IMG/VR virus record: IMGVR_UViG_3300010396_000009
Span: 1 to 64,000 of that record
Source: a virus
Reading direction: 5' to 3' (one strand)
DNA: 64,000 nucleotides
Shown piece by piece: positions 7,413-62,876 of this stretch. Positions within the stretch are counted from its first letter, which is position 1. Each line of letters opens with the position of its first letter. Both the position numbers and the translations under genes were made by a program. The notes beneath the pieces are model-generated. The model was given only the letters and a program-made list of their open reading frames with translations, was not told the origin of the DNA and did no database searches.

Positions 7413-7436
7413 CCATTCCGTACAGTTGGTAGCATT

Positions 7437-7757
7437 TCATGGGTATTTATCACTTTCTGGGATTTCTAGCTCGATCAGCACCTCGGGCTCGGCGTCCTCT
7501 AGTAAGTGGAGCCTCACCTCGCGGTACAGCGTCTTATCTATCTCTGGCTCGCAGTCATCAGTCCATTCTGAGACGTATCGCGTGACCTGACCATTGCACA
7601 CCGTCGCGGCGTGCTTGAGCTTGAGACCGTAGCACTCCATTGCCTCATTAACCCACTCTTGGCCAGCAAGGTCCTCACCGTTTCTGTAATTGTCCTCCAT
7701 CCATTTGGTGAACTCCTCACCATTCCAAATTATCACCACCAACCTGTGTCTCATCAC
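7437..7757 (-). CDS. acidic hypothetical protein (start near 7754-7757)
   Basis: Packed operon; AAAGG SD before VMRHRLVV. Confidence 0.55.
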   Translation of the reverse strand: MMRHRLVVIIWNGEEFTKWMEDNYRNGEDLAGQEWVNEAMECYGLKLKHAATVCNGQVTRYVSEWTDDCEPEIDKTLYREVRLHLLEDAEPEVLIELEIPESDKYP

Positions 7758-8020
7758 GCACCCTTTCTCATCTTGAGCTTGATTGACCTGCGCTCCACCC
7801 TGATCTCCGGGCCAACGGCCCGGCACAGCTTCACCAGAGTGTAGAATTGCGGAAGTCTTGTCTTGTGACTCCGCAGGTTATACAAGGTCCCGGCGCCGAG
7901 CCGGGCCTCCTTGGACAGCGCATTTATGTTGTCGTACTGCTCTTCAGCCAGGACGAACGCGAGATCAGTCGTCGTGCGCATCTCTGAAAGGTATTGACGG
8001 TCTACGTGTATCTTGCTCAT
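7754..8020 (-). CDS. XRE-like helix-turn-helix protein
   Basis: INALSKEARLGAGTLYNL...PQFYTLVKLCRAVG. Confidence 0.7.
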   Translation of the reverse strand: MSKIHVDRQYLSEMRTTTDLAFVLAEEQYDNINALSKEARLGAGTLYNLRSHKTRLPQFYTLVKLCRAVGPEIRVERRSIKLKMRKGA

Positions 8021-41547: not shown

Positions 41548-42237
41548 CTAAATATACCCTGTCACTAGTGCGCCCGCATTGAAACGAAATCCAGGGTCGA
41601 CGTCCGGAGTTCCGATGAACGGCCGAGTCTTAGCCAATCGAGAGCCAAATCTGATCGGCCTACAGCGACAGCGACAATTCCACCCATTCGGGGTGAAATA
41701 TGAGCGCCAGAACTTATGACGCTTGGGATACCTGACGCCGTGAAGAGCTCTGTGACTCTTCCTGGCGTCTATCTTGGCGACGTACTCAAAGCCCCAAATA
41801 CTGGGATCACTGTATCCCTGAATCCAGGTAGCCGCCGCATCAGCGATAGATGACTGAGTCCTGGCTACAGTCTGTATCAGAGACTTATCCTCGCCGTAGA
41901 CACCAATTCTAGTGAGGGCCCTGCGAATATACTGTAATCGCTTCGCCTCGGAGAGCTGTGAGGCTACTCGAATCGCCTTCAATAGATCAGCTCGCACGCG
42001 AGACATGTTCTCGTCTGTGATACTTCGCGCTATCGAGCGAAACATCTCAGTGGCAGCTATCCTTTGGCGCTTGGGAAGCGATCTGAAGACCTTGATGCCA
42101 TGATCCTGCGCCATCGCGAATACTTGGTGCTCGACTTCTGAGCAGTCGAGAGCATAGCCCACCGGATCAGAGGCCGCCTCCAGAGACCATGCGAAGTACC
42201 TGGAGGCGGCGATCGAAGATAGCTGATCTGGCGTCAT
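41548..42237 (-). CDS. MuF / SPP1 gp7-like minor head protein
   Basis: TVARTQ, RKSHRALHG, FW...PNGWNCRC and DPGFRFN. Confidence 0.92.
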   Translation of the reverse strand: MTPDQLSSIAASRYFAWSLEAASDPVGYALDCSEVEHQVFAMAQDHGIKVFRSLPKRQRIAATEMFRSIARSITDENMSRVRADLLKAIRVASQLSEAKRLQYIRRALTRIGVYGEDKSLIQTVARTQSSIADAAATWIQGYSDPSIWGFEYVAKIDARKSHRALHGVRYPKRHKFWRSYFTPNGWNCRCRCRPIRFGSRLAKTRPFIGTPDVDPGFRFNAGALVTGYI

Positions 42238-42536: not shown

Positions 42537-43508
42537 TTACTGAGGCCAGCCCCACCAGAAGGTGTCAAAGCTCATGAACCAGCTGTTATAAGACGGGATG
42601 CCCTGCAGCTCACTCACCTGATTGACCATAGACACCTGTCCTGGACTCAGCAGTGGACCGATGGGTGATTGATATGGCTGCACTGACTGCACCGAGAATG
42701 GGTGAGTTGTGACCCCGACATCGCCATCTACTAGTCTGCGCTGCCCTGCCCTGCACTGCTTGATAAACTTCTCGACTCGCTTTACGTCCGAGCTAAATCG
42801 ATCGCGACCCTCCTCATCAGACGTGTCTCTGATGCCCCTAGCTCGATAAAGAATCGATGCCGCGAGCATCGTGCAGTTGCGACGGAGCCCGGATGACTGC
42901 TGGGCAATCTGCGGAGTAATAATACCGCATGGACTGCCTCGAAGCTGCATCTTAAAGTCATCTGTCGCCTCGTCAACCGCAGCCCAGATGTTATTTAAAA
43001 TATCTGACGTGACTCCAGTGTTAGCGGTATCGGCCCATTGAGTAATAGCATCGGCGGAATAGCGCCTATTCATCTCCCAGTGAGAGGTCCAGAATGCCGG
43101 GTAGTCGTCGTTGCTTACCCAGATCTGATACTGCTCATTGATTACTCGATAAACGCCGTTCTGCTGCAGCGATGTAGTAACCGAGAAGCTAAACAGGTAA
43201 ACAGTGCCGATGGTCCCATCTGGAAGAACTGCAGTAGGCGCAGTAGGATCCTCAGGAAGCACGCCACCAGAAACAGTGCACAAGACACCTTTGCCGATGC
43301 CAATCTGCGTAGCTGGTGATGGCGGTGTCAACGGCCCAGAAAGATTAACAGTGAGAGTCGAGAACGAGAGATCAGTGTTCGTTGGACTTGGCAGTATCAT
43401 CGTTGGATGCGGATCGCACGACGTGATCGTCTCACCGGGCGCCAGCTGCCTAGTGAAATCGAAGTAAAGTATCGGTATGGCGAGTACGCGCTTCTTTATG
43501 ACTAGCAT
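42537..43508 (-). CDS. Ig-like adaptor domain fused to a Mu gp36/DUF1320-like head-tail connector
   Basis: N-terminal YFDF..LAPGETITS..VSGG; C-terminal RYS.DAI...AVDEA...LAASILYRARG. Confidence 0.55.
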   Translation of the reverse strand: MLVIKKRVLAIPILYFDFTRQLAPGETITSCDPHPTMILPSPTNTDLSFSTLTVNLSGPLTPPSPATQIGIGKGVLCTVSGGVLPEDPTAPTAVLPDGTIGTVYLFSFSVTTSLQQNGVYRVINEQYQIWVSNDDYPAFWTSHWEMNRRYSADAITQWADTANTGVTSDILNNIWAAVDEATDDFKMQLRGSPCGIITPQIAQQSSGLRRNCTMLAASILYRARGIRDTSDEEGRDRFSSDVKRVEKFIKQCRAGQRRLVDGDVGVTTHPFSVQSVQPYQSPIGPLLSPGQVSMVNQVSELQGIPSYNSWFMSFDTFWWGWPQ

Positions 43509-43516
43509 TTAGATGC

Positions 43517-43702
43517 TCAGTTGCTCGGCGGAACGAGATATGGCTGCTGCGGTAACCTGATGACGAAGACCGTGCTCGGCGCGCCGAGCACAAATGGAGG
43601 TCCCGGCACCGGCTGCTGGGTGATGGCTCCCGTAACTGGGCGCCAGATCACCCTAGACGCGATGCCCATGGTCCTCTGCGTATGACCCCAGAATATCATC
43701 AT
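43517..43702 (-). CDS. small hypothetical protein
   Basis: Fills a gap in the structural operon. Confidence 0.45.
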   Translation of the reverse strand: MMIFWGHTQRTMGIASRVIWRPVTGAITQQPVPGPPFVLGAPSTVFVIRLPQQPYLVPPSN

Positions 43703-43711
43703 GATAGCACA

Positions 43712-45220
43712 TCACGGCTGCGTGTACAGCGTGAAGGGAAGCTCGATGGCGCCGACGGCAGTCGCGAGGAACGTGATGCCGCCGCCGTTCATATCTGTAT
43801 TGGCCAAATCTACCTTGTAGGTGCCGCTGGTGCCGATCTCTGTGATGCCGCTCATATTGGCAACGTTAGCATACGAATTACCGTCGATAGATCTCTGGAG
43901 CGTGATTTGCCCAGATAACCCAGATAAGAGCTGCTGTGGGTTCGCCGCGTTAAACATCGGGAATGTATAGCCGCTGATACCGACGTCCTTCTTGAAGACC
44001 AGCTGTCCATTCAATAAGGTGACCAGGGCGCCAGCCTGCATCGGCGTTCCGATGGCGACTAGAAGCGCCGCATAGTTAGCCGCGAGCACGCTCGCCTGGG
44101 CTGCTGTCTTGGCAGCGTCGTACGCTGATATGAGCGCCATTGCATCGCCGGCCTTTGCGGGCGCGTAGTTAGGCTGACTGACAGATAGCGCGACTGATGC
44201 GCCCGCTTGCATCGGCGTCCCTACCGCCGTCAAGAGCAACGTCTCGTCAGCTATGTTATTTGTCGGCAGCTTGTTGTAGATGGATGTAAGATGCGACTGA
44301 TCCGTGGCAGTCCACACGACGGATGCCTCGTCGACAGTCTGCGTGTATGCCGATAGAGTGTATACGACAGACGAAATTGTCGCCGATACATCCATGCGTA
44401 TTTGCTCGAGTGTCGGTGAAGCGCCCGGTGTATACGTCCAGCGGTACACACCTGTTGATGGGTTTGTGGCAGCAGACAAATTGCCCGACAAATTGCCGCT
44501 TGTGTTGCCCGTGGCCGTCAGCGTCGGAGTCGTATCGGCATTCACAGCCGTTCCGTCGACGGCGGAGTACGTGCGGCACTCGATGGTATAGGTCTCACCA
44601 GGGACATACTGCCCGATGGTAGTCAGCAACAAGTGCTTCGATGCAGACTGATTAATAGCGACGATATCAGCGTGACTGGCAACAGCGCCGCCGACGTTAA
44701 GGTTATCGAGATAGCCGGCCCTGGCGGACGTAAGTCGTGTCAAGAGCGTCGCAGCATCTACGCCGTCACCACTGGCAATAGTCGCCGGGACTTTGCCGCC
44801 GCTGGAATTCAACTGGCCCGTACCCGTTCCGACCTGCAAGCCGTGGAGGTTGTTATTGGCGTCGACCGTGGGCACGCCTCCATTTGCGCCGGCTGTGGCA
44901 TTCGGCACGCCGTCAAACCCTGCATTGTGTGCATTCGCGACTTCATACGCGTCGCCAGCGTCATTGATTGACGCCTCAGCCCCGCGCCATGCTAGCGGCC
45001 CGGTCGTGCCTGTGTCGCCGGTCCCTAGATCGAAGTAATAGAACCCGCTCGAAATTTCGGTTGCGTTTGTCACGCCGGCCGCCGGGTTCCCGAATAACCC
45101 GCCGTTCTTGCTGATCGTGATTGCAATAGTCTTCCCGGTCGCCAGCGTCTTGCCATCCGATGACAGGTAAGCCCGGAACGCCACACGCTTGGCGACTGAT
45201 TGAGGTATCCGCTCTGCCAT
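43712..45220 (-). CDS. putative fibre/whisker structural protein
   Basis: Gly/Ala/Thr-rich, with related Ig-like end domains (TEISSGFYYFDL / TEIGTSGTYKVDL). Confidence 0.6.
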   Translation of the reverse strand: MAERIPQSVAKRVAFRAYLSSDGKTLATGKTIAITISKNGGLFGNPAAGVTNATEISSGFYYFDLGTGDTGTTGPLAWRGAEASINDAGDAYEVANAHNAGFDGVPNATAGANGGVPTVDANNNLHGLQVGTGTGQLNSSGGKVPATIASGDGVDAATLLTRLTSARAGYLDNLNVGGAVASHADIVAINQSASKHLLLTTIGQYVPGETYTIECRTYSAVDGTAVNADTTPTLTATGNTSGNLSGNLSAATNPSTGVYRWTYTPGASPTLEQIRMDVSATISSVVYTLSAYTQTVDEASVVWTATDQSHLTSIYNKLPTNNIADETLLLTAVGTPMQAGASVALSVSQPNYAPAKAGDAMALISAYDAAKTAAQASVLAANYAALLVAIGTPMQAGALVTLLNGQLVFKKDVGISGYTFPMFNAANPQQLLSGLSGQITLQRSIDGNSYANVANMSGITEIGTSGTYKVDLANTDMNGGGITFLATAVGAIELPFTLYTQP

Positions 45221-45223
45221 GAT

Positions 45224-46672
45224 TTATCCTAAAGCGGAAAGACCAGATGGAAGTGCCGCACGGTTCGCGCCACCCGCCGCCGCCTGACTCTGCAACGCCC
45301 CGCCGTCCGCAAACCCCGCTGTAACCAGCCCCGGCAGCGACCCCGGAAACCCCGCCGCCTTGCACGCTGCCCCGCCGCCAGCCGTCGAGTTCAGCGAGAA
45401 GTCATTGCTAGTGCGTGCGGTAAACGGATCGGCAGTCAGCGTCACGTCTCCGCTGCCGGCGGCGAGATTATTGCGCGCCCCACTGGTGTTCGAACCGTAG
45501 GCGTTGTTGCGGTTCGCGACGATAAACGCGGCCGAGTTGGTGTCGTTTACTCCATACCCGCCGTTGCCCCAGAAAATCGAATTTTGCAGAAGCAGCCCGA
45601 AGAAATTTCCGTTGGCGATCGCACTCACGATTCCGTCGCTGGTCTGCGAGACAAAATCACAATGACCCACGTCGATCATGCTCCCGCTCGTTGCTGATGA
45701 TCCGGCCGCCGACGTGAGGTTGATTCCGGTTGCGTTGCTATAAAACACACAGTTGCGAACGGTGTAACCGTTGACGCCAGACACGCCCATCGACGGAATT
45801 TTGATGCCAGCGCCGGTGTTGCCGTGGATGTAGCAGTTCATAATCCGGCTCGTGTTCGCAATGATAATGCCATCTGCGCCGCCGGTCACTTCAAGTCCGT
45901 CGCAGATCAAATTCGAAATCGCGAATGCGATTGAATTGTCGGAGAGAATAGCTGCTTTGTGACCCGACAGTTTGCAGTTGGAAATTCTCCAATTGGCTGT
46001 GGTCCGATTGAATCCCGGAACAAACGCATATCCAGGTGTACCCGCAGTGGTGCTAAAGTCGATGTTGTCGAACACACGAAAGTTCAATGTCACGCTGGCG
46101 TTGTCTTTAATCATCATCAGGTTGTTCGTGGCAGTCGTAATCAGCGGTCGCGTCCCGTCGTGGTCTCCGCGAGTCGTGTGATACCCTTGCCACGTAATGA
46201 CGCCGCTTGTCTGGTCGCCGGGATTACTGAGGATGATTGATGATGAAATTGTCTGGTTCGTGCCGTCAGCCTTGAGCCATGCAGTGTTCCCGGCAACGAG
46301 CACTCCCTCTGCTTTAGTAATCGTCGCCAGAGCACCGCCTACATTTGCCGTACCTGCTGCCCCGACACCAGTTGCCACGTTGCGGTCGAATGTGATTGAC
46401 GATCCGACAACAACAGACGCCACATTGTAGATGCCGGTGGTGAAGTTCGTGCCCGCTGTGATCTGTGTCCAATTTCCTACCATGTCAGATGTGGCAGAAG
46501 CAGTGGATACGGTTGCACTCGCCCCTGACGTGGTCAATCCGCTCAAGGCATATTGGGCACTCGCCTGCTGGCTGTAATCAGTGCCAGACGAACCGGTGAC
46601 ATAGCCACCTCCATTGTTGTCGCTTCCCGAACCGGGGCGAACTTCTGCAACACTAGCTGCCGGAAGTGTCAT
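45224..46672 (-). CDS. right-handed beta-helix (pectin lyase-like) structural protein
   Basis: Repeated NC/NS-x-F-x-x-N-x-x-x-GI rungs and a C-terminal DPF...DFSL...DGGALQ. Confidence 0.75.
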   Translation of the reverse strand: MTLPAASVAEVRPGSGSDNNGGGYVTGSSGTDYSQQASAQYALSGLTTSGASATVSTASATSDMVGNWTQITAGTNFTTGIYNVASVVVGSSITFDRNVATGVGAAGTANVGGALATITKAEGVLVAGNTAWLKADGTNQTISSSIILSNPGDQTSGVITWQGYHTTRGDHDGTRPLITTATNNLMMIKDNASVTLNFRVFDNIDFSTTAGTPGYAFVPGFNRTTANWRISNCKLSGHKAAILSDNSIAFAISNLICDGLEVTGGADGIIIANTSRIMNCYIHGNTGAGIKIPSMGVSGVNGYTVRNCVFYSNATGINLTSAAGSSATSGSMIDVGHCDFVSQTSDGIVSAIANGNFFGLLLQNSIFWGNGGYGVNDTNSAAFIVANRNNAYGSNTSGARNNLAAGSGDVTLTADPFTARTSNDFSLNSTAGGGAACKAAGFPGSLPGLVTAGFADGGALQSQAAAGGANRAALPSGLSALG

Positions 46673-48545: not shown

Positions 48546-49328
48546 TCAGGCAGCTCTAACGGCCTGCAGATCGGCATTAAGAGCTGTCATATCGATGGCG
48601 TTCGGTGCAGTGTTGTTCGTGAACCAACTTGGGGCGATAATCCCATAGGCCTCGTCGATATAGGCCTCCGCCGCTGCCGGAGTCATGTCAATCAGTGCGC
48701 CCCATGTCACGACCTTGAACTTGAGGGCTCCGCCCTGATCTATGTAACCCACGACGATGACAGCGTGACCACCCCATGAGCCCGGTTGATTCTGATGATT
48801 GGACAGCGGGCCATAGACGTCCCACACATTCTTGCCCTGCCATGCAGTCGGAAGCTGAATTCCGATGTAGGAGAACGCAAAGCAATAAATAGTCTGCTGA
48901 AACGTCGGCAAATCCAATTGACTGTTGCCGGCCTCGATAGAAGCGTAGGCTCCGATCTTATAGCCAGACAATCCAATTTTGGCCATGTAATTCATGACGT
49001 CAAGCTCATTACAGCCGTTGTCATTGCGACCAGTGCGCGGATCATAGCCGCTGATCGCCGAATACATGCCAATCACGTCAGCGTCAGACGGTGTAACGAT
49101 CGCGCCGTTATTGCCCGTCCAGACCTGAATACCGTGACCGAACCCAGCACATGTGCAGTCGCCAATACTATCATTGGCCATCGCTCCCCAGCTGATTCCC
49201 GGAGGCGTCCAGTCGACGATCGACGGCGCTGGCGGCAACCCTGGTGTCAAGTACCTTGCGAGCTTAAGCGTTCGCTCATCGATGCGCGGTGCGTGTTTCC
49301 CGAGCTTAACTTTTGTGTGATCAATCAC
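48546..49328 (-). CDS. papain-like (C1-type) cysteine peptidase
   Basis: GDCTCAG catalytic Cys, GGHAV His, VVTWG. Confidence 0.8.
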
Positions 49329-50209
49329 GGCGAGTACTTTCCAATGAGGGCGCGCATCTTATCGACTGTCTTTGGCATCTGCATATCGGCCGGCGTGATG
49401 TTTAGCCAATCTCCGGTCTGCAAGTTCTTTACGACCACAGTGGGGTATCCGCCGTTCGCGGCGATCTGCTTTGCGTAGAGCGTCTTAATCTGTCCGCCGT
49501 CTGATATGCTCTCAGAGTTGTACCACACCCACTTATGACCCTTGCCAAAGATCGAGTCCTTGGGAACCAGCGGACCTGAGCCAACAGCGAAGAATGGATC
49601 ACGGAGAATAGCACCAACAGCCTGCTGCTGGGGCAAATTATTGGTATCAGTGATAATGACAATGAGAAGCTTAGCAGCCGTGACCGGCGGATTAGGTCCT
49701 GGCCCTGGTCCTGGCCCTGGTCCTGGTCCTGGTTCATCACCAGGTGGCCCCTGCGGACCAGGGTCACCCTTAGGCCCCTGCGGTCCAGGTGGACCCTGCG
49801 GTCCAGGTGGACCTTGCGGTCCTGGTTTTCGCGCTGAGTCACTCTCTGTGACGGTAACAGTGCACTCGTTAGAGATTACGTCGCCGCCGTACGCCCTGAC
49901 GATGTACTCTCCCGGCACCATCGACCAGGCTAAGGTCTTAAGCGGCGCAGGGTTAAACTCCTCATCAAGGAGATTCAGATCATCAGAGTCATCTGACTTG
50001 ACCCAGTGAACCTTTGATAGGTTCGTAGTCGCCTCTAACTTGAGAATTTTCCCGGCAGCAATAGTGAGAGTCGATGGCACTACTATCGCAGGTCCGCCAT
50101 TGACGGGTTCGCCTCTGAGGCGACCCTTCGCCTTGATAGAAACCGGAGAATAAGCTCCGGCACAGCCGGTAATTACGAATAGCAGAAGTAGAGAAAGGAC
50201 GCGACTCAT
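49325..50209 (-). CDS. putative lipoprotein with collagen-like and (GP)n linker
   Basis: [10 protein letters not shown] lipobox-like signal, (GPQGPP)n and (GP)n, and a thioredoxin-like YPTVVV C-terminal domain. Confidence 0.7.
49695..49826 (-). repeat. coding tandem repeats (18-nt collagen unit, 12-nt Gly-Pro unit)
   Basis: Repeats of ggtccaggtggaccctgc and ggccctggtcct. Confidence 0.85.
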
Positions 50210-51266: not shown

Positions 51267-52664
51267 TTATATCGAGTTAATACTAGCATGCCCGTTTCTC
51301 TCAGCTCCGTTTCTCTTGGCCATGAGATATCGTTGCTTGCGACTGAGGCTAGCTCGCATGACGGCCTGACCAGGCTGTTTCTGGATGCCCTTCACCTCAG
51401 GCGCGCCGAGCTGCTCTCGAATAGCAGCCCAGTCTAGGTGAGCCTGCTCTTGAGCCTGCCCAGCCTCTGTTCCCCAGTGCTTCTCATAGAGTCCCTTGAT
51501 GAACGCTCGCTTCTCATCGACGAGCGGCGAAGCCGTGACCTTGACCTTGTCCACGTATCGAGGACCGTAATTCAGCTCAAGAAGAACATTGACCACCTGG
51601 CTATTCAGCAGGGCCATGATCTCCCTGTGAGTCATCTCCAGGTTATCGACCACGAAGTCAGCGTGTGCTTCGGCCTCTGCCTTGGTGCCGAATTGACCCT
51701 CCTGAATAGCTCGCTCAGGAAAGCCAAAGCCGCGGGCCTTTAGCACATCATGATACTTAAGGCGCTCGACGAAAGCGCCCTGCTGAGTCTGCGGTGATTG
51801 GAGCTCAACTCGCCATGCCGCGTTAGCTGGGTTGAAGTTATTCATATCATCCACCTGACCAAGGATAGAGCTCGGCACGGCGACCATGCCAGATGACTGC
51901 AGCGACTTGAGAATATTCGCCGCGATCACAGCATTATCTGTCTCACCAGTGACCGCTCCGGTGACGGGATCTTTCTGTATAGAGGTCCCCATTGGGTAAT
52001 AGACGATCCAGTGTGACCCTGCGATCTTGACGTCAAATCTCCTGGCCCCGTCATCGCACTCGAGCCAAGAGTCATAGGGTCTCTCGCACCTGCGCAAGAG
52101 CGGCTCGCTGTACCAGTTCGTGCCCTCAGCATCACGGTATAAGCAGGCGAAGTCGCCCCTGTACAGATAGACCGGGTTTGGGTTCAACACATTGTGAATT
52201 GCGCTGTTTCGCACGCCGACCATATTGCCATGATAGTCGACGAGAATAGTCGTAAGATCCTGAAGCAGTCCCTTAAATTTCTTCACGTAGAACATACCAG
52301 TGTCTTCGTGCTGCTCCTTCACTACTTCATACGGCTGCCAGCCGAAGTCCAGAAATCCTCGCAGAGCGTCGCGCAGAAACTGAATTCGAAAAGGGACAGT
52401 CGATTGCTTGATGCAGAGCTCGGCATCCTTGAACTCCTCATGCTCGCACTCGACTGTCCACTCGGAGCCAAGCAAGGCAGCCTGATATATGTCGCGAAGC
52501 AGTCCCAGCGTTGGATCGCGGCGCATGAGACGCACTTTGCGAAACCACTGAGAGGTGACTACCGGGTTGAGGGCCAGCACACCAGGTGGGACAAACCCAT
52601 CGGGACCAGCGCCGACGAGAATCTGGGCTACGGTCCTGGCTTGCTTTGGTTCTTTGTCAGCCAC
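51267..52664 (-). CDS. portal protein (Mu gp29/DUF935-like)
   Basis: Size and synteny; DALRGFLDFGWQPYEVV, EPLLR..Y..W and G..AEAEAH. Confidence 0.85.
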   Translation of the reverse strand: MADKEPKQARTVAQILVGAGPDGFVPPGVLALNPVVTSQWFRKVRLMRRDPTLGLLRDIYQAALLGSEWTVECEHEEFKDAELCIKQSTVPFRIQFLRDALRGFLDFGWQPYEVVKEQHEDTGMFYVKKFKGLLQDLTTILVDYHGNMVGVRNSAIHNVLNPNPVYLYRGDFACLYRDAEGTNWYSEPLLRRCERPYDSWLECDDGARRFDVKIAGSHWIVYYPMGTSIQKDPVTGAVTGETDNAVIAANILKSLQSSGMVAVPSSILGQVDDMNNFNPANAAWRVELQSPQTQQGAFVERLKYHDVLKARGFGFPERAIQEGQFGTKAEAEAHADFVVDNLEMTHREIMALLNSQVVNVLLELNYGPRYVDKVKVTASPLVDEKRAFIKGLYEKHWGTEAGQAQEQAHLDWAAIREQLGAPEVKGIQKQPGQAVMRASLSRKQRYLMAKRNGAERNGHASINSI

Positions 52665-54034
52665 TAGTCACCCTTGATCTCATGACCCTGGTTAAACGTC
52701 GCCGTTCCCACCTCGTGGGCGCCCCACTCCTGAGCTGCCCAGTGCTTGATCAGCTGCATCGTGTGCTCATCGCTGCACCGCACCGCTATGACGACCTTCG
52801 GCACGTCGAGGATCTTTCGAACGGCGACCTGAAGATCAACTCCGCCACGAGCAAATCTCTTCACGTCGCGAGAGAATTTCATACCGCGCTTCTCTGGGAG
52901 CGTGAACACGGCATTAAGGCCCATCGCCTCTCTTTGATGAGGTTTCACACGAGCGGTAGGCTCTAAAGGAGACATGTCACCTCTTGAGTTGAGCGCCCTG
53001 GCCTTGCTGCGCTTGGCGACGCCGTCGATAGAGTGCAGAACGGAGACATTATCGGTCTCGACGTTCACGAGCACCCACTGTCGCCTATCCTCTGGGTCTG
53101 GATTTGGATAGCGCTGAAGCTGCACCACCAGTTTGATGTCAGGGAAACCGTACTTCAGGTCCATTATCGAGTCGCGCATCTCGGCCGCATTGCCGGCGGG
53201 GACCACGTAGTGGGCCCTCGGAAGAACCTGGCGCTGGTGCTTGGCTGCACGAGCCTTGGCGAACCTATCCTTGGGCTCACCAGCTAGTGCTACTGAGCCC
53301 GGCAAGCTTTTTTTTCGCGCTGCTTTTGAGTCTTGAGAACCAAGAACGACGTTATCAACTAGGCTCAGCGAGAAGCTCGCGAATCGCCCTTGAGCGTCCC
53401 TCTCGTACTGCCGCTGGGAGACGTGGGTCTTCCCTTGGCGGTCGAGCGCCTCGTATCTCGTGCGAACCCCTGCATGATGATGCCAAAGCCTCTTGTGCTT
53501 TGCCGCGATTGCCTTGGTCCCCGGAAAAGTGCTCTTCTTGAACTTCTCGTAGCCAGAGCGGTGAACGTCCTCGTGCGTCTTGTGATGCTTAATGATATCC
53601 TTCACCGAGATCATGTTGTTCTCGGAGATCGGTGGAAGGTCGTTGTCTCGCCGCACCTGATTGCCGTATCCTCTGCTAAGATCGCTCTTTGTCCTCTTGA
53701 AGAGCCTGCCGCTCACCAGGTCCTTGGTGTACTGGATAGGGTGCATGACGGCCTGCTTCGTGTTCTTGATCGTCGCGGATACGAGCGGAGACACATCGCA
53801 CGCTACACCCTCCATGGAGAGCGCGTAGAGCTGCTTCCTGGTCAGTGGGCGACCCTGCTCAGCGAGCGAAAGGTAATACGAGGCGGCTCGGCTGATCGGC
53901 TTTCGTCGGCGACCTTTTCGCTTTACCTTGTAGGGCAATTTTTTCCCCTTCGGAGTCTTTTTCTCGAACTCGTGGGCGATCTCGGGATGATGAATGTGCA
54001 TGTAGGCTCGCTGCGCCTGAGATACAAAAGGCAT
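52664..54034 (-). CDS. modular basic head-associated protein (start MPFVSQ at 54034)
   Basis: TAATG coupling to TerL, an MPFxSQAQR N-terminal module, an RDAQGRF motif and two C-terminal alpha/beta modules. Confidence 0.7.
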   Translation of the reverse strand: MPFVSQAQRAYMHIHHPEIAHEFEKKTPKGKKLPYKVKRKGRRRKPISRAASYYLSLAEQGRPLTRKQLYALSMEGVACDVSPLVSATIKNTKQAVMHPIQYTKDLVSGRLFKRTKSDLSRGYGNQVRRDNDLPPISENNMISVKDIIKHHKTHEDVHRSGYEKFKKSTFPGTKAIAAKHKRLWHHHAGVRTRYEALDRQGKTHVSQRQYERDAQGRFASFSLSLVDNVVLGSQDSKAARKKSLPGSVALAGEPKDRFAKARAAKHQRQVLPRAHYVVPAGNAAEMRDSIMDLKYGFPDIKLVVQLQRYPNPDPEDRRQWVLVNVETDNVSVLHSIDGVAKRSKARALNSRGDMSPLEPTARVKPHQREAMGLNAVFTLPEKRGMKFSRDVKRFARGGVDLQVAVRKILDVPKVVIAVRCSDEHTMQLIKHWAAQEWGAHEVGTATFNQGHEIKGD

Positions 54035-55344
54035 TATGCCGCTCCCACCAAAACACTCGGAACCACGTCGCTCGTAGGAACAACTGGCCACACTCGATGA
54101 ATAATATACCCAAGGGCGTCAGTGATGTGACCAATGTCATCATGATCATCGACGTCGCGACTGCCGGGCTCATATGCCCTGGTCACCAGATCATGAAGCA
54201 GCCATTTGCACCGGGGATCAACGAAGACTCGTCGCTCTCCCAGGGCGTTGCAGAAGGACGCATTGCATGCCGAGAACCGCTCATGAATCGCGGGGTTCTT
54301 CGCAGGATAGAAGATCTTCTTTCTAAGGAAACGCTGATCATTCTGGATATGTGCATAGTCGCTCTGAACAGCGCTAGTCTTCCTGGCCTTGGATGACGCA
54401 TCGCCGAAGAAGATCCAGCCTGATTGGTGCACACTTGGCCTATTATAGCGCTTATCTAATTCATTTAACGCAGCCGGCGTGTTAGTGTTGCGAATCCAGA
54501 TCTCGTCGATGACATTGAGCTTCGGCCTAGACGTCGTGTGCTGCTGGCAGATGACCCACGCCATAGGGTCTACGTTGAAGTCAGATCCGATGATCAGTGG
54601 CTTACTTGGGTCATACTTTGCTGATTCTATGTTAAGCTTCTCATCGAACGCGTAGAACACCAGCCCAGATGTTCCCTGCCAGATGGCCCCGAACTGCTCG
54701 TCAAAATCCTTCTGATCAAGACTTCTGGCGGCGTCAGCTATTTCCTCCTCGCTCAGGATGTCAGCGCTTGGCCAGGTATAGCTCTCGTATCTCGGGCCAA
54801 GCTTTCCAGAACCGTAGTCCTCCCAGCACTTCTTGAACTCGGAGGCACCTGGTCCAAACCGCTTGGGAACACCGATACGCCAACACCAGCCAGTTTTATG
54901 AGATAACGTCGGGCGAACCGAGCGATCGAACGAGCCGGGCCATTGATCGCACGATTCATCGATGACCCCGCCGTCCCACTGAACGCCCTCGATTCTAGCC
55001 GGCTCATTCATGCCGACGAGGAAGAGCTTAGATCCGAAGCGAGTCTTGATCGTCAGATCACTCTCGCGTATGTCATCAGGCGAGGCTATCCACTCCTTTG
55101 GAATCAGGGCCTTGATCTTCTCCCAGGCGACTAATTTAGCCTGCGCCCTAGTGGGATACGCCAGGAAATAGATCGGATCAGGCCAGGGCTTCTTAACCGG
55201 GAGAAACCTTACCAGTCGTCGCCTAGATAGCTCCGTCTTGCCAGAGCCTCGGCCGCAAGCCAGCGCGACGAAGCGCGCCTTGGTGCGCCACACCCTAGTC
55301 TGAGCCGGGTGATAGCGAAGCGGAAACCAAGCCGGGGTGAGCAT
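54034..55344 (-). CDS. terL: terminase large subunit
   Basis: GRGSGKT Walker A, VIDE Walker B, GSDFN and HITDALGY nuclease motifs. Confidence 0.95.
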   Translation of the reverse strand: MLTPAWFPLRYHPAQTRVWRTKARFVALACGRGSGKTELSRRRLVRFLPVKKPWPDPIYFLAYPTRAQAKLVAWEKIKALIPKEWIASPDDIRESDLTIKTRFGSKLFLVGMNEPARIEGVQWDGGVIDESCDQWPGSFDRSVRPTLSHKTGWCWRIGVPKRFGPGASEFKKCWEDYGSGKLGPRYESYTWPSADILSEEEIADAARSLDQKDFDEQFGAIWQGTSGLVFYAFDEKLNIESAKYDPSKPLIIGSDFNVDPMAWVICQQHTTSRPKLNVIDEIWIRNTNTPAALNELDKRYNRPSVHQSGWIFFGDASSKARKTSAVQSDYAHIQNDQRFLRKKIFYPAKNPAIHERFSACNASFCNALGERRVFVDPRCKWLLHDLVTRAYEPGSRDVDDHDDIGHITDALGYIIHRVWPVVPTSDVVPSVLVGAA

Positions 55345-55805
55345 TACTTCGCCTTAAGTTGCTCTCTTAAGGCTTTGTACCGCTTCATCCGTTCAGGTCG
55401 CACAGGGTGCAGTGACTGCAGATCCTGGATCGCCAAGGCGACCTCGCGACCAACGCCTCGCCCGGGATCAAGCATCAGGTCATGGCTCATCTTGATGAGG
55501 TCCTTGACCACGTGAACTCCCTCGGTCGGAGCGAACATCTCACCGAAGAAAGAGTCAAAGATGAGCTGCTGAAACTGCAGGACCTTTTCCCTGCGCCCGG
55601 TCACGGCGATCTTGCAGTCGGCGTAAAGCTTCGCATCCAGGCCGTGCTCCTTGGCTAGTTTGAGCGCCGGCTCGATGTTGTCCCGCTGATTCACGGAGAT
55701 GATCTTCGTGAACTGATCATCGGCGCTGTCCATGGCCAGGGAGAAGTCCCGGCGCACCTGACCACGGCGAAGCATTCGATTAGCTGCTTTGAGCATGGGA
55801 TTCAT
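55344..55805 (-). CDS. hypothetical protein with one copy of the repeat module
   Basis: IISVNQRDNIEPALKLAKEHGLDAKLYADCKIAVTG; coupled to TerL. Confidence 0.65.
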   Translation of the reverse strand: MNPMLKAANRMLRRGQVRRDFSLAMDSADDQFTKIISVNQRDNIEPALKLAKEHGLDAKLYADCKIAVTGRREKVLQFQQLIFDSFFGEMFAPTEGVHVVKDLIKMSHDLMLDPGRGVGREVALAIQDLQSLHPVRPERMKRYKALREQLKAK

Positions 55806-58800
55806 TCTGAAGCACCTTTACGTTAATGGCGTTATTCTGCTCAGCGATTTTCTTTACCAATTCGGGATCGCTGGTAAGCACCAGGACCCGGTCGTTGTCC
55901 TTCTTCTGACCCTTGATTCCGTTCTCCCTGAGCTCCGTCAAGAATTTACCCAGAAGGTATGCGTTGGCCGCGAACGCTACGACCATGTAGGTCAGATGGG
56001 CGGCTCCCTTGACTGCTGCAGGGAAAGCTAGCTCATGCGAAGCAGCTGCCTCCTTGACCAATTTTTTAACTCTCGCGGTCCTGGCTCGTCGCTTGGCGAT
56101 CTTCTCAATTTTCTCTGGTGAGCCCTGCGCCACGACCTCGCCGTTAGGCTTTACTTTTGCCAAGATTCCGCTGGAGATCAGGTCAGCCGCGACCGTAGTC
56201 GCCACGTACGGCCCCACATCCTTGATAAGCCACCAGCCGACACCCTTCAGGAACGGCAGGGCTGCGATGGCGGGGAAGGCCATTTCTTTGCCCTTCTTTT
56301 TCTTCATCTCCTTGATTTTGCCATGGAGCGGCTTCTCGAGGTTAGTCACCGGGGGTTTCTTCTTGGGTTTCTGGACAGGGACTCCGCCGTTTGACACCAC
56401 AGCTGCTCGCTGCTGAGCCTTCGGCATTACCTTTGAGGCGGGCTTAGGCGCAGGTTTAGGCGCAGCGATAGGGGCCGGCGCAGCTCGCCTCACAGGCCGC
56501 TTCTTTGTAACTCCGCTCTTAAGAATCTTGCCTCGAAAAGCCGCGACGACGGCGTCTAATAAGCGCATCAGGGCGGCTCTCACCACCACGTGCACCCTGC
56601 CGTAGCCATCGGCGAACGAGTCAAAGATCCCGGCCTTGGCGAGCCATCGCATGGCCGCGGTCGCCCCGACGATACCGCCAAAGTCAATGATCAGCTCATG
56701 AAACACGTCGCCAATCGGTTTCTCGTGGAAGTTAGGATCAGTGCGCCGCGGGATCGGACCGGTTTCTTCATGTGGCGTGAACGCGCTGGGTTGCACCCCT
56801 GGACCAGCGCCGGGCGCCTGGTGCTTAGATCCAAATGTTCCAGTGGCCGTCGGATGCCTGGTGATAATTCCGCCGGCGGCAAATTCATTGACGGCAGGCT
56901 CGATGTCAGAGCCCTTGACACCCAGCACGACGATCTTCTTACCCTTCATGTACAGGTTCTGGAGCGGCTTGAAGTGATACTTGTTCACCAGCTGCTGGTA
57001 CGCCGCCTTGGCCGAGGCGACGCTCTTGCAGTCAAACTCCCAATTCATCGGGGACTCTTCGGCCATGAATGAGGCGGCCTTGACCTGGCCGCTGTGCTCG
57101 TCAATGATCTCCTTGACCTGATTCTCCTTGCTCGGGTCAGTGGTCTGGGCGAAGATCTTGTTGCCGATCACCTTCGCCTGGACACCCAGCTTCTTGATCA
57201 GCTGATACGCCCCGACTGCCAGAGCCCCGGTGGCGAACGTGGCGGTGATCGCCAAGAGCGCCTCACCCTTGGTCCTGGGGATGAAGCCCTTCACACCCTG
57301 CCGGGATGCCTCCTTGACAGCGCCCGGCAGGGCGCGGGCTATTCTCCCGACCTTGCCGGGCATAGAGCCTACTGTTTCTTTTGCATGCTTGGCTCCCTTG
57401 CCAAGCTTTTGCAGCTTGACCCTGGTCTCGTGCGGCAGCATGTCATGCACCATACTAGAGGGCAGGAACTCGGTGCCCGGAAGCACCATTCGCACCCCGG
57501 CCTCGAATTTTCTGTCCATCTCCTTAAAGATTCGCCCCATGATCGCGTCCGTTTTCTCTGTGGCCTTGCACAGGATGCTCTTTTCGCCGTTGCGACGAGC
57601 GGCGAGTCCCTTCGATCTGAGATAGGCGAGGCCAGCGGCGACCGCGAGCGAATTGGCGAAGACAAACTCGACCACTTCTGCCGGACCAAGACCCATCGCA
57701 TATGACATCGCCACGTCCACCCTGGCCCCGCATCGCTGAGCGTAGCGACGCACAGCCTCCTGTCCTCGGTCGCCGTAGGCCCGAATCTTGATCTTTCGCT
57801 TCTGCATGCCGCGACCGAGCGAGGAGAGGATCTCGCAGCCGAAGCCGCGCAATTTTTGAGCGAGCCACCCAACGTACTTCGGACTCACGGACGAGAGCAC
57901 GAATTCGTAAGCCCGACCCATGTCCATCTGGAACGACGCCGCGACCTGAGATGAATTAGTCGGCTCCATCTTGCCGCCATACTTTTTGGTGATCTCCTTC
58001 ACCTCGGTCTTCTTGTCGCCGCGAAGCTTCTTCACCAAGACATAGGCGCCGTACGCGGCAGCCGAGATACCAGCGGCTGTCAGGGCAACAAGGGCTGCAG
58101 ACGCCGCAGCATTGGCACCGAACTTTAGAAGCATGGAGCCGATCGCCATATCAGCGGCGTCTTGGCCGGACTTAAATGCCTTTGCTCTTGTGTTCTCGTG
58201 AGCGAACTTCATCACACCGACCTGGCCGAAGTCGGGCGGGATCGGCGAGCCCTTGAACTCCTGCACGCACTTGTTGATAACTCGGCGCTCTCCAGTAGCG
58301 GTGAGCTTATGTGAGTGAGGAAACGGTCGCTTCACCTTGACACCGTTCTTGCGGAGCCACAGAGACGCCTCGTCTGCCAGGTCCTCGCCCTCAAAGTAGA
58401 GCTGCATTGCCTCTACGCCGCTGTTCCGATCCTTGGCGCCGGGCTCTGTGGGTTCACTTGAGTTTGGCCTGTACGCACTCTGCTGCTGGGCTGGCATCTG
58501 CATAGGAGGAATCACCACTCCGTTTCCGTTCACCCCTGAGGGATAATTGCGTCGCATCATCTGCTTCTCATCATAAAGCGCCATCATTGCGTCAACCATG
58601 CTCATCCCCCTCATCCCGCCGTAGTTAAATGGTCGGCCGACATCGCGCATCTCATGGATCTTCTTGCTCGGCCGAAAATGCACATAGAAAGTCTCGGGCT
58701 TGAAGACGTCGTCCTTGGTCCTGGGATTCTTCTTCCACGCAGATTTTCTTCTGCGCATCTCAAAGATGCCGAAGTTCCGGAGCTCAACTCGCTGACCGTT

Positions 58801-59979
58801 TAATAGCGCCAGCGCGATCTTATCAAGGACAGCAGAGACAACTGGCCTTGTGCGCGCCTGTGCAAAGCCGAGCTCTTCAGAGATAGCAAGGTACAAAGCG
58901 CGCTTAGTCAAGGTCGAGCCAGCGACGGAAACGTCGAAGTCCATGCTAATCGGCGTAAGCGATGCAGCGTACCTCAAGCCAGGTGGTTCAACGACCTTAT
59001 AGTGAATAATGCCCATCTTATGAAGCTCTTGCATCACCTTGTCATGAATGAGAAGATGCACCACGGAGGGACTAGCATGCGGATCTTTTTTCCACATCTC
59101 AGTCGCTATTGGCTTCAGATGTTTCTTGTACAGCTTTGTTATCAGCTTAGCGATTTTCTCTGAATCTTGAGGATAGTTAGGTCCAGGTTTGGCCAGGTGA
59201 GAGACACCCTTATGATTAACTGCCTCGATCGACCTAACTCCGGGCCAGCCGACGAAAACTTGAATATCCTGGGTGCTGAATGTGCCGCCGGCTCTCTTAG
59301 AGTTACTGGGGTGATTATGAATTATCGCGTACTTATTCTTCTTGTCTATGGCGCCAGGAACACTTAAGTGTACGCGTCCCTTGCTGCCGTCGAACCTATG
59401 AATCACGTCTCCCTCATGATTCACTATGACCGAGTGTTCCTTTTCGCTTTTCTTGCCCTTTCTGAGCACGCTTTGCCTAGCTTTGTTTGCACCCTCAGTA
59501 AAGTGATTCTTGAATCCACTAATAGAGTGCTCAAATGCGAACGCCGGCCACTGTCCAGTCATGTTCCCGGTCATGTCTCTTCGCCTGTCGGGAAACCTCA
59601 TATTTCTCTTATAGGCTCTCTTGCGAGCCTGGATCGCCGGGTCAGGGTTCTCGATGGGGCTTATGGCGCTCCCAGTGCAGCAGGGTTCGCCAGTGTTCTG
59701 CACAGTCGAGTCTATAACATGCGTCACCTTCCCCTTATACGCCTTAACAGCCTGGCGAAGAAATGAGATAAAGGTCTCATGCGAGTGCATGTATCGCGGG
59801 GCACCTTCAGAACGATCCGGCATACGAATGTGAAGCTCGAGCTCGCGCTCAGAGACCCTGTCCATTTTCAGGGGAGCCGTACCAGCGATCTTAGCCTGCA
59901 TCCAGTCGATGAACTGCTTAAGAGCGCCCGGTGACCTGAATATCATGGTCAGGTGAATCGGCAGCTCGTGAGTCTTCAT
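55780..59979 (-). CDS. 1399-aa modular protein: JAB/MPN-like domain, HU/IHF domain and about 10 small alpha/beta repeats
   Basis: HNHPS...FSTQD; LTKRAL...VELRNFGIFE.RRRK...KNPRT...FRPSK; repeated F..A...L...G modules. Confidence 0.85.
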   Translation of the reverse strand: MKTHELPIHLTMIFRSPGALKQFIDWMQAKIAGTAPLKMDRVSERELELHIRMPDRSEGAPRYMHSHETFISFLRQAVKAYKGKVTHVIDSTVQNTGEPCCTGSAISPIENPDPAIQARKRAYKRNMRFPDRRRDMTGNMTGQWPAFAFEHSISGFKNHFTEGANKARQSVLRKGKKSEKEHSVIVNHEGDVIHRFDGSKGRVHLSVPGAIDKKNKYAIIHNHPSNSKRAGGTFSTQDIQVFVGWPGVRSIEAVNHKGVSHLAKPGPNYPQDSEKIAKLITKLYKKHLKPIATEMWKKDPHASPSVVHLLIHDKVMQELHKMGIIHYKVVEPPGLRYAASLTPISMDFDVSVAGSTLTKRALYLAISEELGFAQARTRPVVSAVLDKIALALLNGQRVELRNFGIFEMRRRKSAWKKNPRTKDDVFKPETFYVHFRPSKKIHEMRDVGRPFNYGGMRGMSMVDAMMALYDEKQMMRRNYPSGVNGNGVVIPPMQMPAQQQSAYRPNSSEPTEPGAKDRNSGVEAMQLYFEGEDLADEASLWLRKNGVKVKRPFPHSHKLTATGERRVINKCVQEFKGSPIPPDFGQVGVMKFAHENTRAKAFKSGQDAADMAIGSMLLKFGANAAASAALVALTAAGISAAAYGAYVLVKKLRGDKKTEVKEITKKYGGKMEPTNSSQVAASFQMDMGRAYEFVLSSVSPKYVGWLAQKLRGFGCEILSSLGRGMQKRKIKIRAYGDRGQEAVRRYAQRCGARVDVAMSYAMGLGPAEVVEFVFANSLAVAAGLAYLRSKGLAARRNGEKSILCKATEKTDAIMGRIFKEMDRKFEAGVRMVLPGTEFLPSSMVHDMLPHETRVKLQKLGKGAKHAKETVGSMPGKVGRIARALPGAVKEASRQGVKGFIPRTKGEALLAITATFATGALAVGAYQLIKKLGVQAKVIGNKIFAQTTDPSKENQVKEIIDEHSGQVKAASFMAEESPMNWEFDCKSVASAKAAYQQLVNKYHFKPLQNLYMKGKKIVVLGVKGSDIEPAVNEFAAGGIITRHPTATGTFGSKHQAPGAGPGVQPSAFTPHEETGPIPRRTDPNFHEKPIGDVFHELIIDFGGIVGATAAMRWLAKAGIFDSFADGYGRVHVVVRAALMRLLDAVVAAFRGKILKSGVTKKRPVRRAAPAPIAAPKPAPKPASKVMPKAQQRAAVVSNGGVPVQKPKKKPPVTNLEKPLHGKIKEMKKKKGKEMAFPAIAALPFLKGVGWWLIKDVGPYVATTVAADLISSGILAKVKPNGEVVAQGSPEKIEKIAKRRARTARVKKLVKEAAASHELAFPAAVKGAAHLTYMVVAFAANAYLLGKFLTELRENGIKGQKKDNDRVLVLTSDPELVKKIAEQNNAINVKVLQNESHAQSS

Positions 59980-59984
59980 AAGTG

Positions 59985-60352
59985 GAATATACCTAAGTGA
60001 CAGAGACTAGTGAACGCCTAAGCAATTCACTAGTCTCTGGAACTCAGCCGGTGTTAGCTCATGTACAAAGAGCCGCGGCTCAATTACTTTGCTCTAGACA
60101 AGAGGTCAGGGAATTTTATCGACCTTCGCTTCACCCTCCCGGCATCGTGAGTCAAGTGTATAAAATAGCCTCTCGGCGGATCAGAGGGCCGAGGCCTGGT
60201 GGCCCTTCCATGAATTACCGCTTTGGTTCTTTCACCGGGCGCCCATCCTACCAGCAGATGAGAACTAGTGACCTGGATGATTAGGTCGCTACCCAGCGAG
60301 GGATTTACTGTTTTACCGGCTCTCGCCTTTACCGGTCGGGCAACGTCTGTTC
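59985..60352 (-). ncRNA. candidate structured non-coding RNA
   Basis: About 370-nt gap in a tightly packed operon, with a series of hairpins, minus-strand G-U pairs, GAGA tetraloops and a perfect 14-bp stem at 60001-60039. Confidence 0.5.
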
Positions 60353-61922: not shown

Positions 61923-62876
61923 TTAAAGTGTTACTCCGGTTACTCGACGAACGACGTGGCTGTAGGACATCTTATGATCACAGCTATTACAGTTCGGCAA
62001 ATCGCGCCTCTTGTCCTGCAGATGGGCGCGGTAGCGAAACATGATCTCTGAGTTCCATACCTGATCAATAGTTTGATGATTCAAATCACCGATGAATACC
62101 GCATCGTCCTGTGTCTGGTCAATCGCGCAGCAGAGCGGCACTCGCCCATCATATTGGATGACGAGATGTCGATGCGGCCTGGCGCAGTGCGTCTGCGGGG
62201 CGCTTGCGGCGTGTCCCTTTGAGTGGAAGCTGTCGAACGAGTGAGCGTTCTCTGGGCGATCACTGCGCATGTCACTGATGCAAAGAAAGCGACCGCGAGA
62301 ATTATGACGGCGATACTTATGATCAGTACGACACCACAGATCATGAGCTCGCCCAGTGCTGTCAATGCTCTCATACAGTTCCTTCTGCTTGATCCCGGCA
62401 TCACCAAGATCATAGATGTTTAGGTTGATCACGTTGACGCCAGAGTCAAAGATATCGGTGATCCGGTCAACCATCGCTATTATTTGGTCTCGCGGGCCTC
62501 TGGTGATCGTGTCTCCGTTCGTCGAGACATAGATAGTGCAGTCAGGGCAAGCTCGGCGAAGACGCATAGCCCAGCTAGAATCATCAGACGAAAACAGTCG
62601 CTTGTCAAGAGTAGGCTCGTTTAGTAAAAACAATTGGATGCATCCATCGAACTGATGCTCGCGCAGCTGATCACAGATGCTCGTGAACAGCTCCTCGCTC
62701 ATCAATTTTTGATTGGGCCTGGGAATGTCACCACCGAATCCGCTGATGGGACAGAAACTGCAGCGTCGATTGCAGTAGGCGCTCGTCTCAATACTGAAGC
62801 GATTTGGCCAGGGATAGAACTCCCCTTTTGAGAAGTCCACCGGCGGCTCGTGCATCACGTCGAAAAATGAAGCCAT
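61923..62876 (-). CDS. radical SAM/SPASM protein
   Basis: CNRRCSFC and NEP; SPASM-type C..P.....IQYDG.V..CC...GDL...W...CNSC. Confidence 0.9.
   Translation of the reverse strand: MASFFDVMHEPPVDFSKGEFYPWPNRFSIETSAYCNRRCSFCPISGFGGDIPRPNQKLMSEELFTSICDQLREHQFDGCIQLFLLNEPTLDKRLFSSDDSSWAMRLRRACPDCTIYVSTNGDTITRGPRDQIIAMVDRITDIFDSGVNVINLNIYDLGDAGIKQKELYESIDSTGRAHDLWCRTDHKYRRHNSRGRFLCISDMRSDRPENAHSFDSFHSKGHAASAPQTHCARPHRHLVIQYDGRVPLCCAIDQTQDDAVFIGDLNHQTIDQVWNSEIMFRYRAHLQDKRRDLPNCNSCDHKMSYSHVVRRVTGVTL

Follow-up and report, generated by a model that had tools for sequence, protein, structure and literature searches.

The giant gene and its IHF/HU domain

The window analysed here is a stretch of 64,000 nucleotides (nt) of DNA from an uncultured soil phage, bases 1-64000 of the IMG/VR record IMGVR_UViG_3300010396_000009. 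The record comprises 75,231 bp, has direct terminal repeats and is rated 100% complete. A giant open reading frame (ORF) on the minus strand (55780..59979) encodes a strongly basic protein of 1,399 amino acids (aa), which contains 221 Lys and Arg and 126 Asp and Glu residues and has a net charge of about +95. Residues 357-443 form a DNA-binding domain of the IHF/HU type (58651..58911, -). On comparison of the sequences, this domain alone is strongly conserved in a family of very basic, bead-on-a-string giant proteins that evolve fast and are encoded upstream of the large terminase subunit TerL. It is the sole confirmed domain of the giant protein among the candidate DNA-binding and effector domains.

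Translation of 58651-58911 on the minus strand yields an 87-aa segment without a stop codon. It was identified by profile, PDB and alignment matches. An initial sequence-only reading had described a complete IHF/HU domain inside a giant protein and had proposed a Pfam scan as a check. The scan bore it out. Bac_DNA_binding (PF00216) matches above its cut-off (E 8.3e-17, 61.7 bits, cut-off 22.4) over profile positions 1-87 of 90, and the six-frame search of the genome returned the domain with E 2.6e-19. PHROG 379, 'DNA binding protein', also matches (E 9e-13). Chains of IHF alpha, IHF beta and HU from the PDB (e.g. 1ihf, 2iif, 5eka) align end to end with the domain, with a best E of 8e-15 in phmmer. 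Both motifs named in the first reading are present: the arm tip NPRT at residues 418-421 (58717-58728, -; within KKNPRT) and FRPSK at residues 435-439. An alignment of 82 HU-like sequences has six invariant columns (E, R, G, F, the arm-tip P, F), and all six are retained. A secondary Pfam match to HU-HIG (E 2e-5, 24.9 bits) lies slightly under the cut-off of 26.2.

By NCBIfam score, the domain is nearer to IHF than to HU. The equivalogs for IHF beta and IHF alpha gave 53.5 bits (cut-off 115) and 47.3 bits (cut-off 111), respectively, neither cut-off being reached, and those for HU alpha and HU beta gave about 19 bits (cut-offs 157-162). Identity as an orthologue of IHF alpha or IHF beta was rejected, as the scores are far under the equivalog cut-offs.

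A homodimer model of the domain scored 0.72, and the best of three controls 0.01. In the benchmark of solved structures, the mark of 0.72 was attained by 20 of 30 one-chain pairs and one of 23 single chains. The runs had a contact agreement of at least 75% and a partner predicted local distance difference test (pLDDT) value of at least 76. They placed the interface on helices 1-2 and the C-terminal strand, as in the canonical intertwined dimer. Because HU/IHF dimers are already among the solved structures, likeness to them may by itself account for the pass. The segment is a real IHF/HU-type DNA-bending domain, for which dimer formation is predicted. That it binds DNA is well grounded and highly probable.

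Relatives and modules of the giant protein

Relatives were found by an exhaustive phmmer search against 1.84 billion representative proteins and were taken from the best 150 of 2,121 matches. Besides fragments of the giant protein itself, at least five further giant lineages with the same HU domain were present among metagenomic proteins. The six lineages, with lengths of 1,078-1,843 aa, are P0002 (the giant protein of the window), P0006/P0156, P0008, P0010, P0047 and P0055/P0157. P0006 and P0156 comprise 1,832 and 1,843 aa; P0006 is collinear with the window's giant on both sides of the HU domain, and blocks of the two are 29-61% identical (BLASTP). In P0008, P0010 and P0047 (1,162, 1,078 and 1,513 aa), the HU domain is located at the extreme N-terminus. 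It occupies residues 205-289 in P0055/P0157 (1,382 and 1,393 aa). Natural split forms exist as well: P0009 is a stand-alone HU protein of 130 aa, 54% identical to the window domain, and P0011 is a module protein without HU.

Searches with other tools returned no further members. The giant gene and protein had no match among 50,697 GenBank phages (megablast, tblastn). A word-index protein search with the whole giant and with residues 150-345 found nothing, in an index that missed even P0006. Scans of viral contigs with P0002, P0006, P0047 and P0009 gave nothing. A metagenome scan with the HU alignment returned ordinary stand-alone IHF-like genes; its best 80 matches contained no giant fusion and none with this TerL or portal nearby.

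The same fusion in several lineages bears on its reality. An assembly or gene-calling artefact, that is, an HU gene of host or phage wrongly joined to adjacent ORFs, had been named with the first reading as the result that would overturn it. The record is metagenomic, and the stretch was found in a single public run, a soil metagenome that may be the source sample itself. No RNA dataset containing the stretch is listed. However, the frame of the giant gene is open over 4,200 nt. The Logan assembly, made with a second assembler, holds a 75,138-bp contig that is identical over 55300-60100, with a mean depth of 23.7 and neither variants nor joints. Five other lineages, from different assemblies, have the fusion too, and in P0006 the collinearity extends to both HU flanks. 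An assembly artefact is effectively ruled out.

In a quick tree of 154 HU domains, the domains of five giant lineages and P0009 form one group, with a Shimodaira-Hasegawa-like approximate likelihood ratio test (SH-aLRT) value of 81. P0055/P0157 is set apart on a long branch. A single origin of the HU domain in all six lineages is compatible with this sequence tree. The giants' domains form a group of their own and are not nested among cellular sequences. The closest cellular look-alikes, from a pattern-limited scan, are four loci in metagenome-assembled genomes, three of them labelled Verrucomicrobiota or Planctomycetota. The phylogeny of the HU domain, suggested earlier as a clue to the host, is a weak one in view of the separate group and the four loci from a limited scan. 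On these grounds, no host was assigned from HU.

The giant protein begins with a ferredoxin-like beta-alpha-beta-beta-alpha-beta module (residues 9-90; 59710..59955, -), which was modelled by AF2 (AlphaFold2) with a pLDDT of about 60-78 and is 39% identical to P0006 (BLASTP). An insert of about 196 aa (residues 150-345; 58945..59532, -) is absent from the collinear P0006. It is followed by a conserved linker, ISMDFDV (58930..58950, -), which precedes the HU domain and has the counterparts IAFDFDV in P0006 and LAYDFPV in the stand-alone P0009. Behind the HU domain lies a low-complexity linker (residues 444-522; 58414..58650, -) with the string GMSM (58597-58608), where the relatives have EMSFA, GASMS or SMSF. 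The next module, labelled 'LYFE', is again ferredoxin-like (residues 523-580; 58240..58413, -; AF2 pLDDT 66-90). It is 61% identical to P0006 and recognisable in P0006, P0008, P0010 and P0055. A third ferredoxin-like module comprises residues 978-1048 (56836..57048, -; AF2 pLDDT 75-87; Foldseek).

AF2 was applied to residues 1-470 without alignment and to residues 500-1399 with nine sequences, and the mean pLDDT was 42 in both cases. Outside the three modules, the predicted secondary structure follows the same pattern at lower confidence. Foldseek searches of the modules in PDB and BFVD returned generic ferredoxin-like folds (ACT, HMA, RRM, designed proteins), plus matches of low TM-score to long proteins. 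Weak internal repeats connect several modules (E 0.003-0.02). Ala/Gly-rich hydrophobic segments, which resemble transmembrane helices, fall inside predicted helices and strands of the modules in low-confidence models. The segments may belong to the cores of the modules instead of spanning a membrane.

The insert at residues 150-345 carries a JAB/MPN-like string, HNHPS-x9-S-x2-D (59266-59319), assigned by motif only and not confirmed. This HNHPS..S..D string and an Atlas lead at 0.85 constitute the support for a JAB domain. No JAB match to the insert was obtained in Pfam at E<=5, nor in PDB with phmmer, and the JAB families PF14464 and PF04002 found nothing in this genome at E<=10. Identity of residues 150-345 as a JAB/RadC/MPN metallopeptidase was rejected, every profile and PDB test being negative.

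Genomic setting of the packaging genes

The local gene order, all on the minus strand, is the giant gene, a 153-aa ORF (55344..55805), TerL (54034..55344), a 475-aa basic protein (52664-54091) and a portal protein of the Mu type (Portal_Mu; 51267..52664). TerL matches PHROG 2 (E 5e-30) and is the second gene downstream of the giant gene, as the sequence-only reading had stated. The 153-aa ORF has no family match and is not conserved in the relatives. A separate MuF protein of 229 aa is encoded at 41548-42237.

Synteny was compared between the window and the two loci of relatives with recoverable DNA, L003 and L004. The giant gene is located upstream of TerL and portal in all three. L003 has the order P0010, 244-aa ORF, split TerL, 499-aa ORF and portal. 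On the 78.6-kb contig L004, P0055 overlaps TerL, followed by a 775-aa ORF and the portal. Several genes further upstream in the window are syntenic with L004. TerL and portal of the window are 60-69% and 48-57% identical, respectively, to those of L003 and L004, whereas the three giants align only at the HU domain and a few modules. Such a contrast in divergence is typical of proteins in host conflict. The closest TerL in GenBank is only about 33-35% identical, and its phage has an ordinary TerS and no giant gene.

A different gene adjoins the giant gene in L003. Directly upstream of P0010, a 402-aa protein (1341-2549) contains an ADP-ribosyltransferase domain (PF03496; E 2e-6, 27.7 bits, cut-off 23.4). 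The class is that of the head-packaged effector Alt of phage T4. The C-terminus of this protein and the 244-aa ORF of L003 have a DGNHR-containing segment in common.

The position beside TerL raises the question of a packaging cofactor. The HU/IHF domain would bend the concatemer junction or the terminal-repeat region for terminase assembly, and the giant protein would replace or assist a missing TerS. Host IHF assists the terminase of phage lambda at cosB. In favour of this role, the giant gene precedes TerL in all three related phages, with an overlap of the two in L004; direct terminal repeats are present in the genome, and the domain scores nearer to the IHF subunits (53.5 and 47.3 bits) than to HU (19). 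There is no recognisable TerS: the TerS families of Pfam and PHROGs did not match the giant protein or the family-less, non-conserved 153-aa ORF, and the TerS of the nearest GenBank relative, MW202621, found nothing in this genome, L003 or L004. However, TerS is notoriously hard to detect, so that such a negative result is weak, and L003 has a different ORF, of 244 aa, in the TerS position. No known TerS comes near a size of 1,100-1,800 aa and a dozen modules of unrelated appearance. Outside the HU domain, the giant protein evolves at a much higher rate than TerL and portal, and this would not be expected of a TerL partner. A role as packaging cofactor is considered unlikely.

The gap of about 370 nt in front of the giant gene contains candidate regulatory elements. 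An inverted repeat with 22-nt arms (86% complementary) and an 11-nt loop (59993..60047, -) ends 14 nt before the giant ATG and overlaps the promoter-like sequence TTCACT-17-TATATT. A terminator-like GC hairpin with a T-run is located about 150 nt further upstream (about 60160-60195). Inverted repeat and hairpin may mark an operon boundary or an operator. The terminator-like hairpin, the promoter-like site and the inverted repeat upstream would fit a giant gene that opens the packaging/head transcription unit.

Several further observations were made in this region. The TerL of L003 is present as two ORFs in different frames (6540-7274 and 7324-7845), 69% and 54% identical to the window TerL; a frameshift, a sequencing error or an intervening element could be the cause. 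Residues 20-53 of the 475-aa protein comprise an N-terminal peptide of about 35 aa, SQAQR..MH..HPE.A..EK.TPKGKKLP. The N-terminus of the giants P0055/P0157 (9968-10069 in L004) matches it with about 70% identity, and the peptide is also present in the locus L005. From its sequence, the common peptide may be a targeting or docking signal. A radical SAM enzyme that contains a SPASM domain (E 5.6e-12; 61923-62876, -) is encoded some 2 kb upstream of the giant gene, amid small family-less ORFs. Fibre-like genes (42537-46672, -) are located between portal and MuF, inside the expected head block. They encode a beta-helix-like protein of 482 aa and a Gly/Thr-rich protein of 502 aa; the third product, of 323 aa, matches the podophage GP4 fibre-tail adaptor gp77 below the threshold (E 1.8e-4).

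A protease cassette is found on the same strand. The 260-aa protein at 48546-49328 (-) shows papain-like catalytic strings (IGDCTCAG...) and matches PHROG 19005; its only PDB match is the cysteine protease 3ois (E 0.31). The upstream partner (49325-50209, -) is a lipoprotein-like protein of 294 aa that carries a signal peptide and has collagen-like PGPQGPPG repeats. A comparable pair occurs in L004, where the peptidase is another one (PHROG 16701), and L003 has a secreted proline-rich protein followed by a metzincin with the string HELGHALGLNH. The cassette is conserved while the protease class is swapped, and the secreted proline-rich partner suggests an envelope-directed role. The papain-like protease was considered as maturase of the giant protein and rejected, as L004 has another peptidase in its place and L003 a metzincin, while the junction motif discussed below is common.

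A Shine-Dalgarno core of at least 4 nt was present at five of 19 gene starts checked, which suggests a host with weak Shine-Dalgarno use. Met346 and most other internal Met codons of the giant gene are without a Shine-Dalgarno-like sequence. True starts here are mostly likewise without one, so this is not decisive against translation of the HU domain from an internal start.

Proposed function, junction motif and known systems

In the tentatively preferred reading, placed just below an even chance, the HU domain anchors to DNA a polyvalent protein that is made late and probably carried in the capsid. As the first gene of a packaging/head operon, the giant gene would be co-expressed late. Two HU domains would pair into a saddle and clamp the phage DNA via their proline-tipped arms. 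The clamp would join two giant chains, or two released domains, to phage DNA and tether the ferredoxin-like modules and the variable enzyme-like inserts to the genome. The tethered modules would travel with the DNA into the capsid and then into the next host. Separation at recurrent A-S-(F/Y/M) junctions is conceivable and would free an HU protein of about 100 aa. The capsid-carried reading is supported because an ADP-ribosyltransferase, the class of Alt, adjoins the giant gene in L003. The presence of the giant protein in the capsid is a realistic prospect, judged slightly less probable than its absence.

The junction motif was derived from the relatives. In an unbiased count of 3-mers, ASM ranked first, with 11 occurrences observed and 1.4 expected. 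AS[FYM] is five- to tenfold enriched in the relatives and occurs six times each in P0010 (0.63 expected; 0/1000 shuffles) and P0047 (0.86 expected; 0/1000 shuffles), and four times each in P0006 (0.80 expected; 8/1000 shuffles) and P0055 (0.81 expected; 7/1000 shuffles). In the window's giant, two are observed and 0.91 expected (233/1000 shuffles), and the looser [AGSM][AGS][MFY] occurs 18 times versus 9.8 expected (4/500 shuffles). In four of the five other lineages, the HU domain is followed at a distance of 5-15 residues by the motif, as EMSFA (P0047, P0008), GASMS (P0010) or SMSF (P0055). The domain thereby appears from sequence as a separable unit, being N-terminal in P0008, P0010 and P0047, stand-alone in P0009 and followed by the junction motif in these four lineages. 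Further copies in the window's giant are AASFQ at residues 680-684 (57928..57942, -), AASF just before module 978-1048 (57064-57078, -), MSYAM (57694-57708, -), EMAFP (56272-56286, -) and ELAFP (56020-56034, -). The two AASF copies, MSYAM, EMAFP and ELAFP sit at module boundaries defined by AF2. The sequence-only reading had placed the HU domain between candidate cleavage motifs. The recurrence of a junction motif across the family agrees with it, but the two copies that flank the domain, ISMDFDV upstream and GMSM downstream, are degenerate. Release of the modules by cleavage is plausible because of the motif enrichment in relatives, the placement behind HU and at module boundaries, and the split forms P0009/P0011. 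Overall, the case for release is evenly balanced.

A number of observations weigh against the proposed function. In the HU alignment, a nearly invariant arm Arg is replaced by Ala in the giant's domain (another is replaced by Lys). Only three modules of the AF2 models are usable, the rest being poor. The enzyme-like inserts are assigned at motif level alone: the P0055 insert has a GNAT-like match below the cut-off (E 0.031), and a ParB-like DGRHR string in the P0006 and P0055 inserts is without profile match. Neither a fusion to MuF or portal nor a zincin-like peptidase was found in the giant protein by Pfam or PHROGs. Where cleavage is concerned, the simple AS[FYM] motif is not enriched in the window's giant, and the five-residue version was fitted after the fact. 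Behind the HU domain, the window's giant has the degenerate GMSM and P0006 no clear motif nearby. No prohead or maturation protease was recognised by Pfam or PHROGs. Weak repeats contain the motif in register (residues 629-700 versus 907-988, E 0.003-0.009; 1258-1314 versus 1341-1397).

The latter two points favour a protein that works uncleaved, with A-S-F/Y/M as the structural end of a repeated module. The protease near the portal differs in class (papain-like in the window and L004, metzincin in L003), though the motif is common, and the N4 virion RNA polymerase is packaged without processing (PMC5512222). However, the motif is the best-conserved feature of otherwise highly diverged linkers and also stands behind the HU domain, which is not a repeat, in four lineages. 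As the split forms P0009 and P0011 show, the parts can work as proteins in their own right. This alternative, which concerns the proteolysis step only, is a serious one, although the balance leans away from it.

The giant protein might also never be packaged. It would then act within the infected cell as a nucleoid, genome-organising or host-takeover factor and coat or compact the DNA of phage or host. TF1 of phage SPO1, a characterised phage HU homologue, acts inside the infected cell and counts in favour of such a role. All 68 HU-like genes in GenBank phages are annotated as stand-alone DNA-binding proteins (e.g. SPbeta YonN, RcapMu HU), and the high basic charge suits general coating of DNA. 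Against it stands the conserved place at the front of the packaging/head operon. Architecture and neighbourhood resemble those of capsid-delivered polyvalent effectors, with the ADP-ribosyltransferase gene adjoining in L003, and a bead-on-a-string build with junction motifs is unneeded for a simple nucleoid protein. A purely intracellular role is regarded as improbable.

A variant of the capsid-carried reading treats the giant as a polyprotein, with which a group of tailed soil phages would make its own 'chromatin kit'. The parts, an IHF/HU dimer plus some ten small proteins of basic charge and ferredoxin-like fold, would be cut apart at A-S-F/Y/M and packed with the genome. The cleaved proteins would condense or organise the DNA in the capsid and escort the genome into the next host. 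A tailed-phage genome organised by proteins in this way would be nearer to the cores of adenovirus or African swine fever virus (ASFV) than to naked phage DNA. The variant is thought quite improbable.

If the capsid-carried reading holds, clamping onto the genome would be a simple physical route to co-package and co-deliver many modules. It would also be a testable case of phage-encoded DNA-organising proteins within a tailed virion. Should the junction motif be a true cleavage site, it would indicate a protease specificity not characterised before. As a protein family, the ferredoxin-like modules are expanded and unnamed.

Known capsid-carried proteins provide the first comparison. The internal proteins (IPs) and Alt of T4 and the inner-body proteins of phiKZ-like phages are carried in the capsid with the DNA, are basic and are cut at a short recurrent motif by a prohead protease. 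Cleavage there follows motifs with a terminal Glu (LxE, AxE), by proteases that can be identified. The giant protein differs in its candidate motif, A-S-F/Y/M, with no protease recognised, and its presence in the capsid is a proposal.

Polyvalent phage proteins with N-terminal DNA-binding domains have been described and linked to phages of the portal-terminase type (Iyer, Burroughs, Anand, de Souza and Aravind, 2017; PMC5512222). Examples are P1 DdrB and DarB and the effectors fused to MuF; DdrB is processed before packaging (PMC5512222). Polyvalent proteins, like the giant, are very large, consist of many modules, are encoded beside head and packaging genes of portal-terminase phages and diversify rapidly. 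A nucleic-acid-binding domain is often located near the N-terminus with enzyme-like modules behind it, and some are processed before or after packaging. In contrast, the giant is without MuF fusion, zincin-like peptidase or confirmed enzymatic domain and consists mostly of small ferredoxin-like modules. By word search, the main text of the polyvalent survey does not mention HU/IHF, histone-like or nucleoid domains (PMC5512222).

The remaining comparisons concern the domain. HU/IHF proteins are normally small, free-standing dimers. The giant's domain has in common with cellular IHF/HU the full-length alignment, the arm proline and the predicted canonical dimer interface. It differs in being embedded at residues 357-443 of 1,399, in the replacement of one arm Arg and in its phage-specific tree group. 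The Bac_DNA_binding fold is likewise that of the phage HU homologues (PHROG 379, SPbeta YonN, RcapMu HU, Crassvirales IHF-like proteins). In Crassvirales, a stand-alone IHF-like gene belongs to the conserved structural block with major capsid protein (MCP), TerL and portal (PMC10136315). Unlike the giant's domain, none of the 68 stand-alone matches in GenBank phages is described in a protein of >1,000 aa, and identity to them is at most 34%. HU-HIG and HU-CCDC81 are HU fusion clades with winged helix-turn-helix (wHTH), immunoglobulin (Ig) or glycine-rich segments as partners (Burroughs et al., 2017; PMC5499826). By word search of that survey, phages appear only with lambda integration, and polyvalent proteins, capsid and virion are not mentioned (PMC5499826). 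In these clades, HU is likewise fused to other domains, but not to a string of a dozen modules. HU domains in phage proteins of 1,100-1,800 aa, encoded beside the packaging motor, widen the repertoire both of HU fusions and of polyvalent/cargo proteins. New here is a phage protein, apparently of the polyvalent/cargo type, in which an HU domain as the proposed anchor is joined to a series of so far unnamed ferredoxin-like modules.

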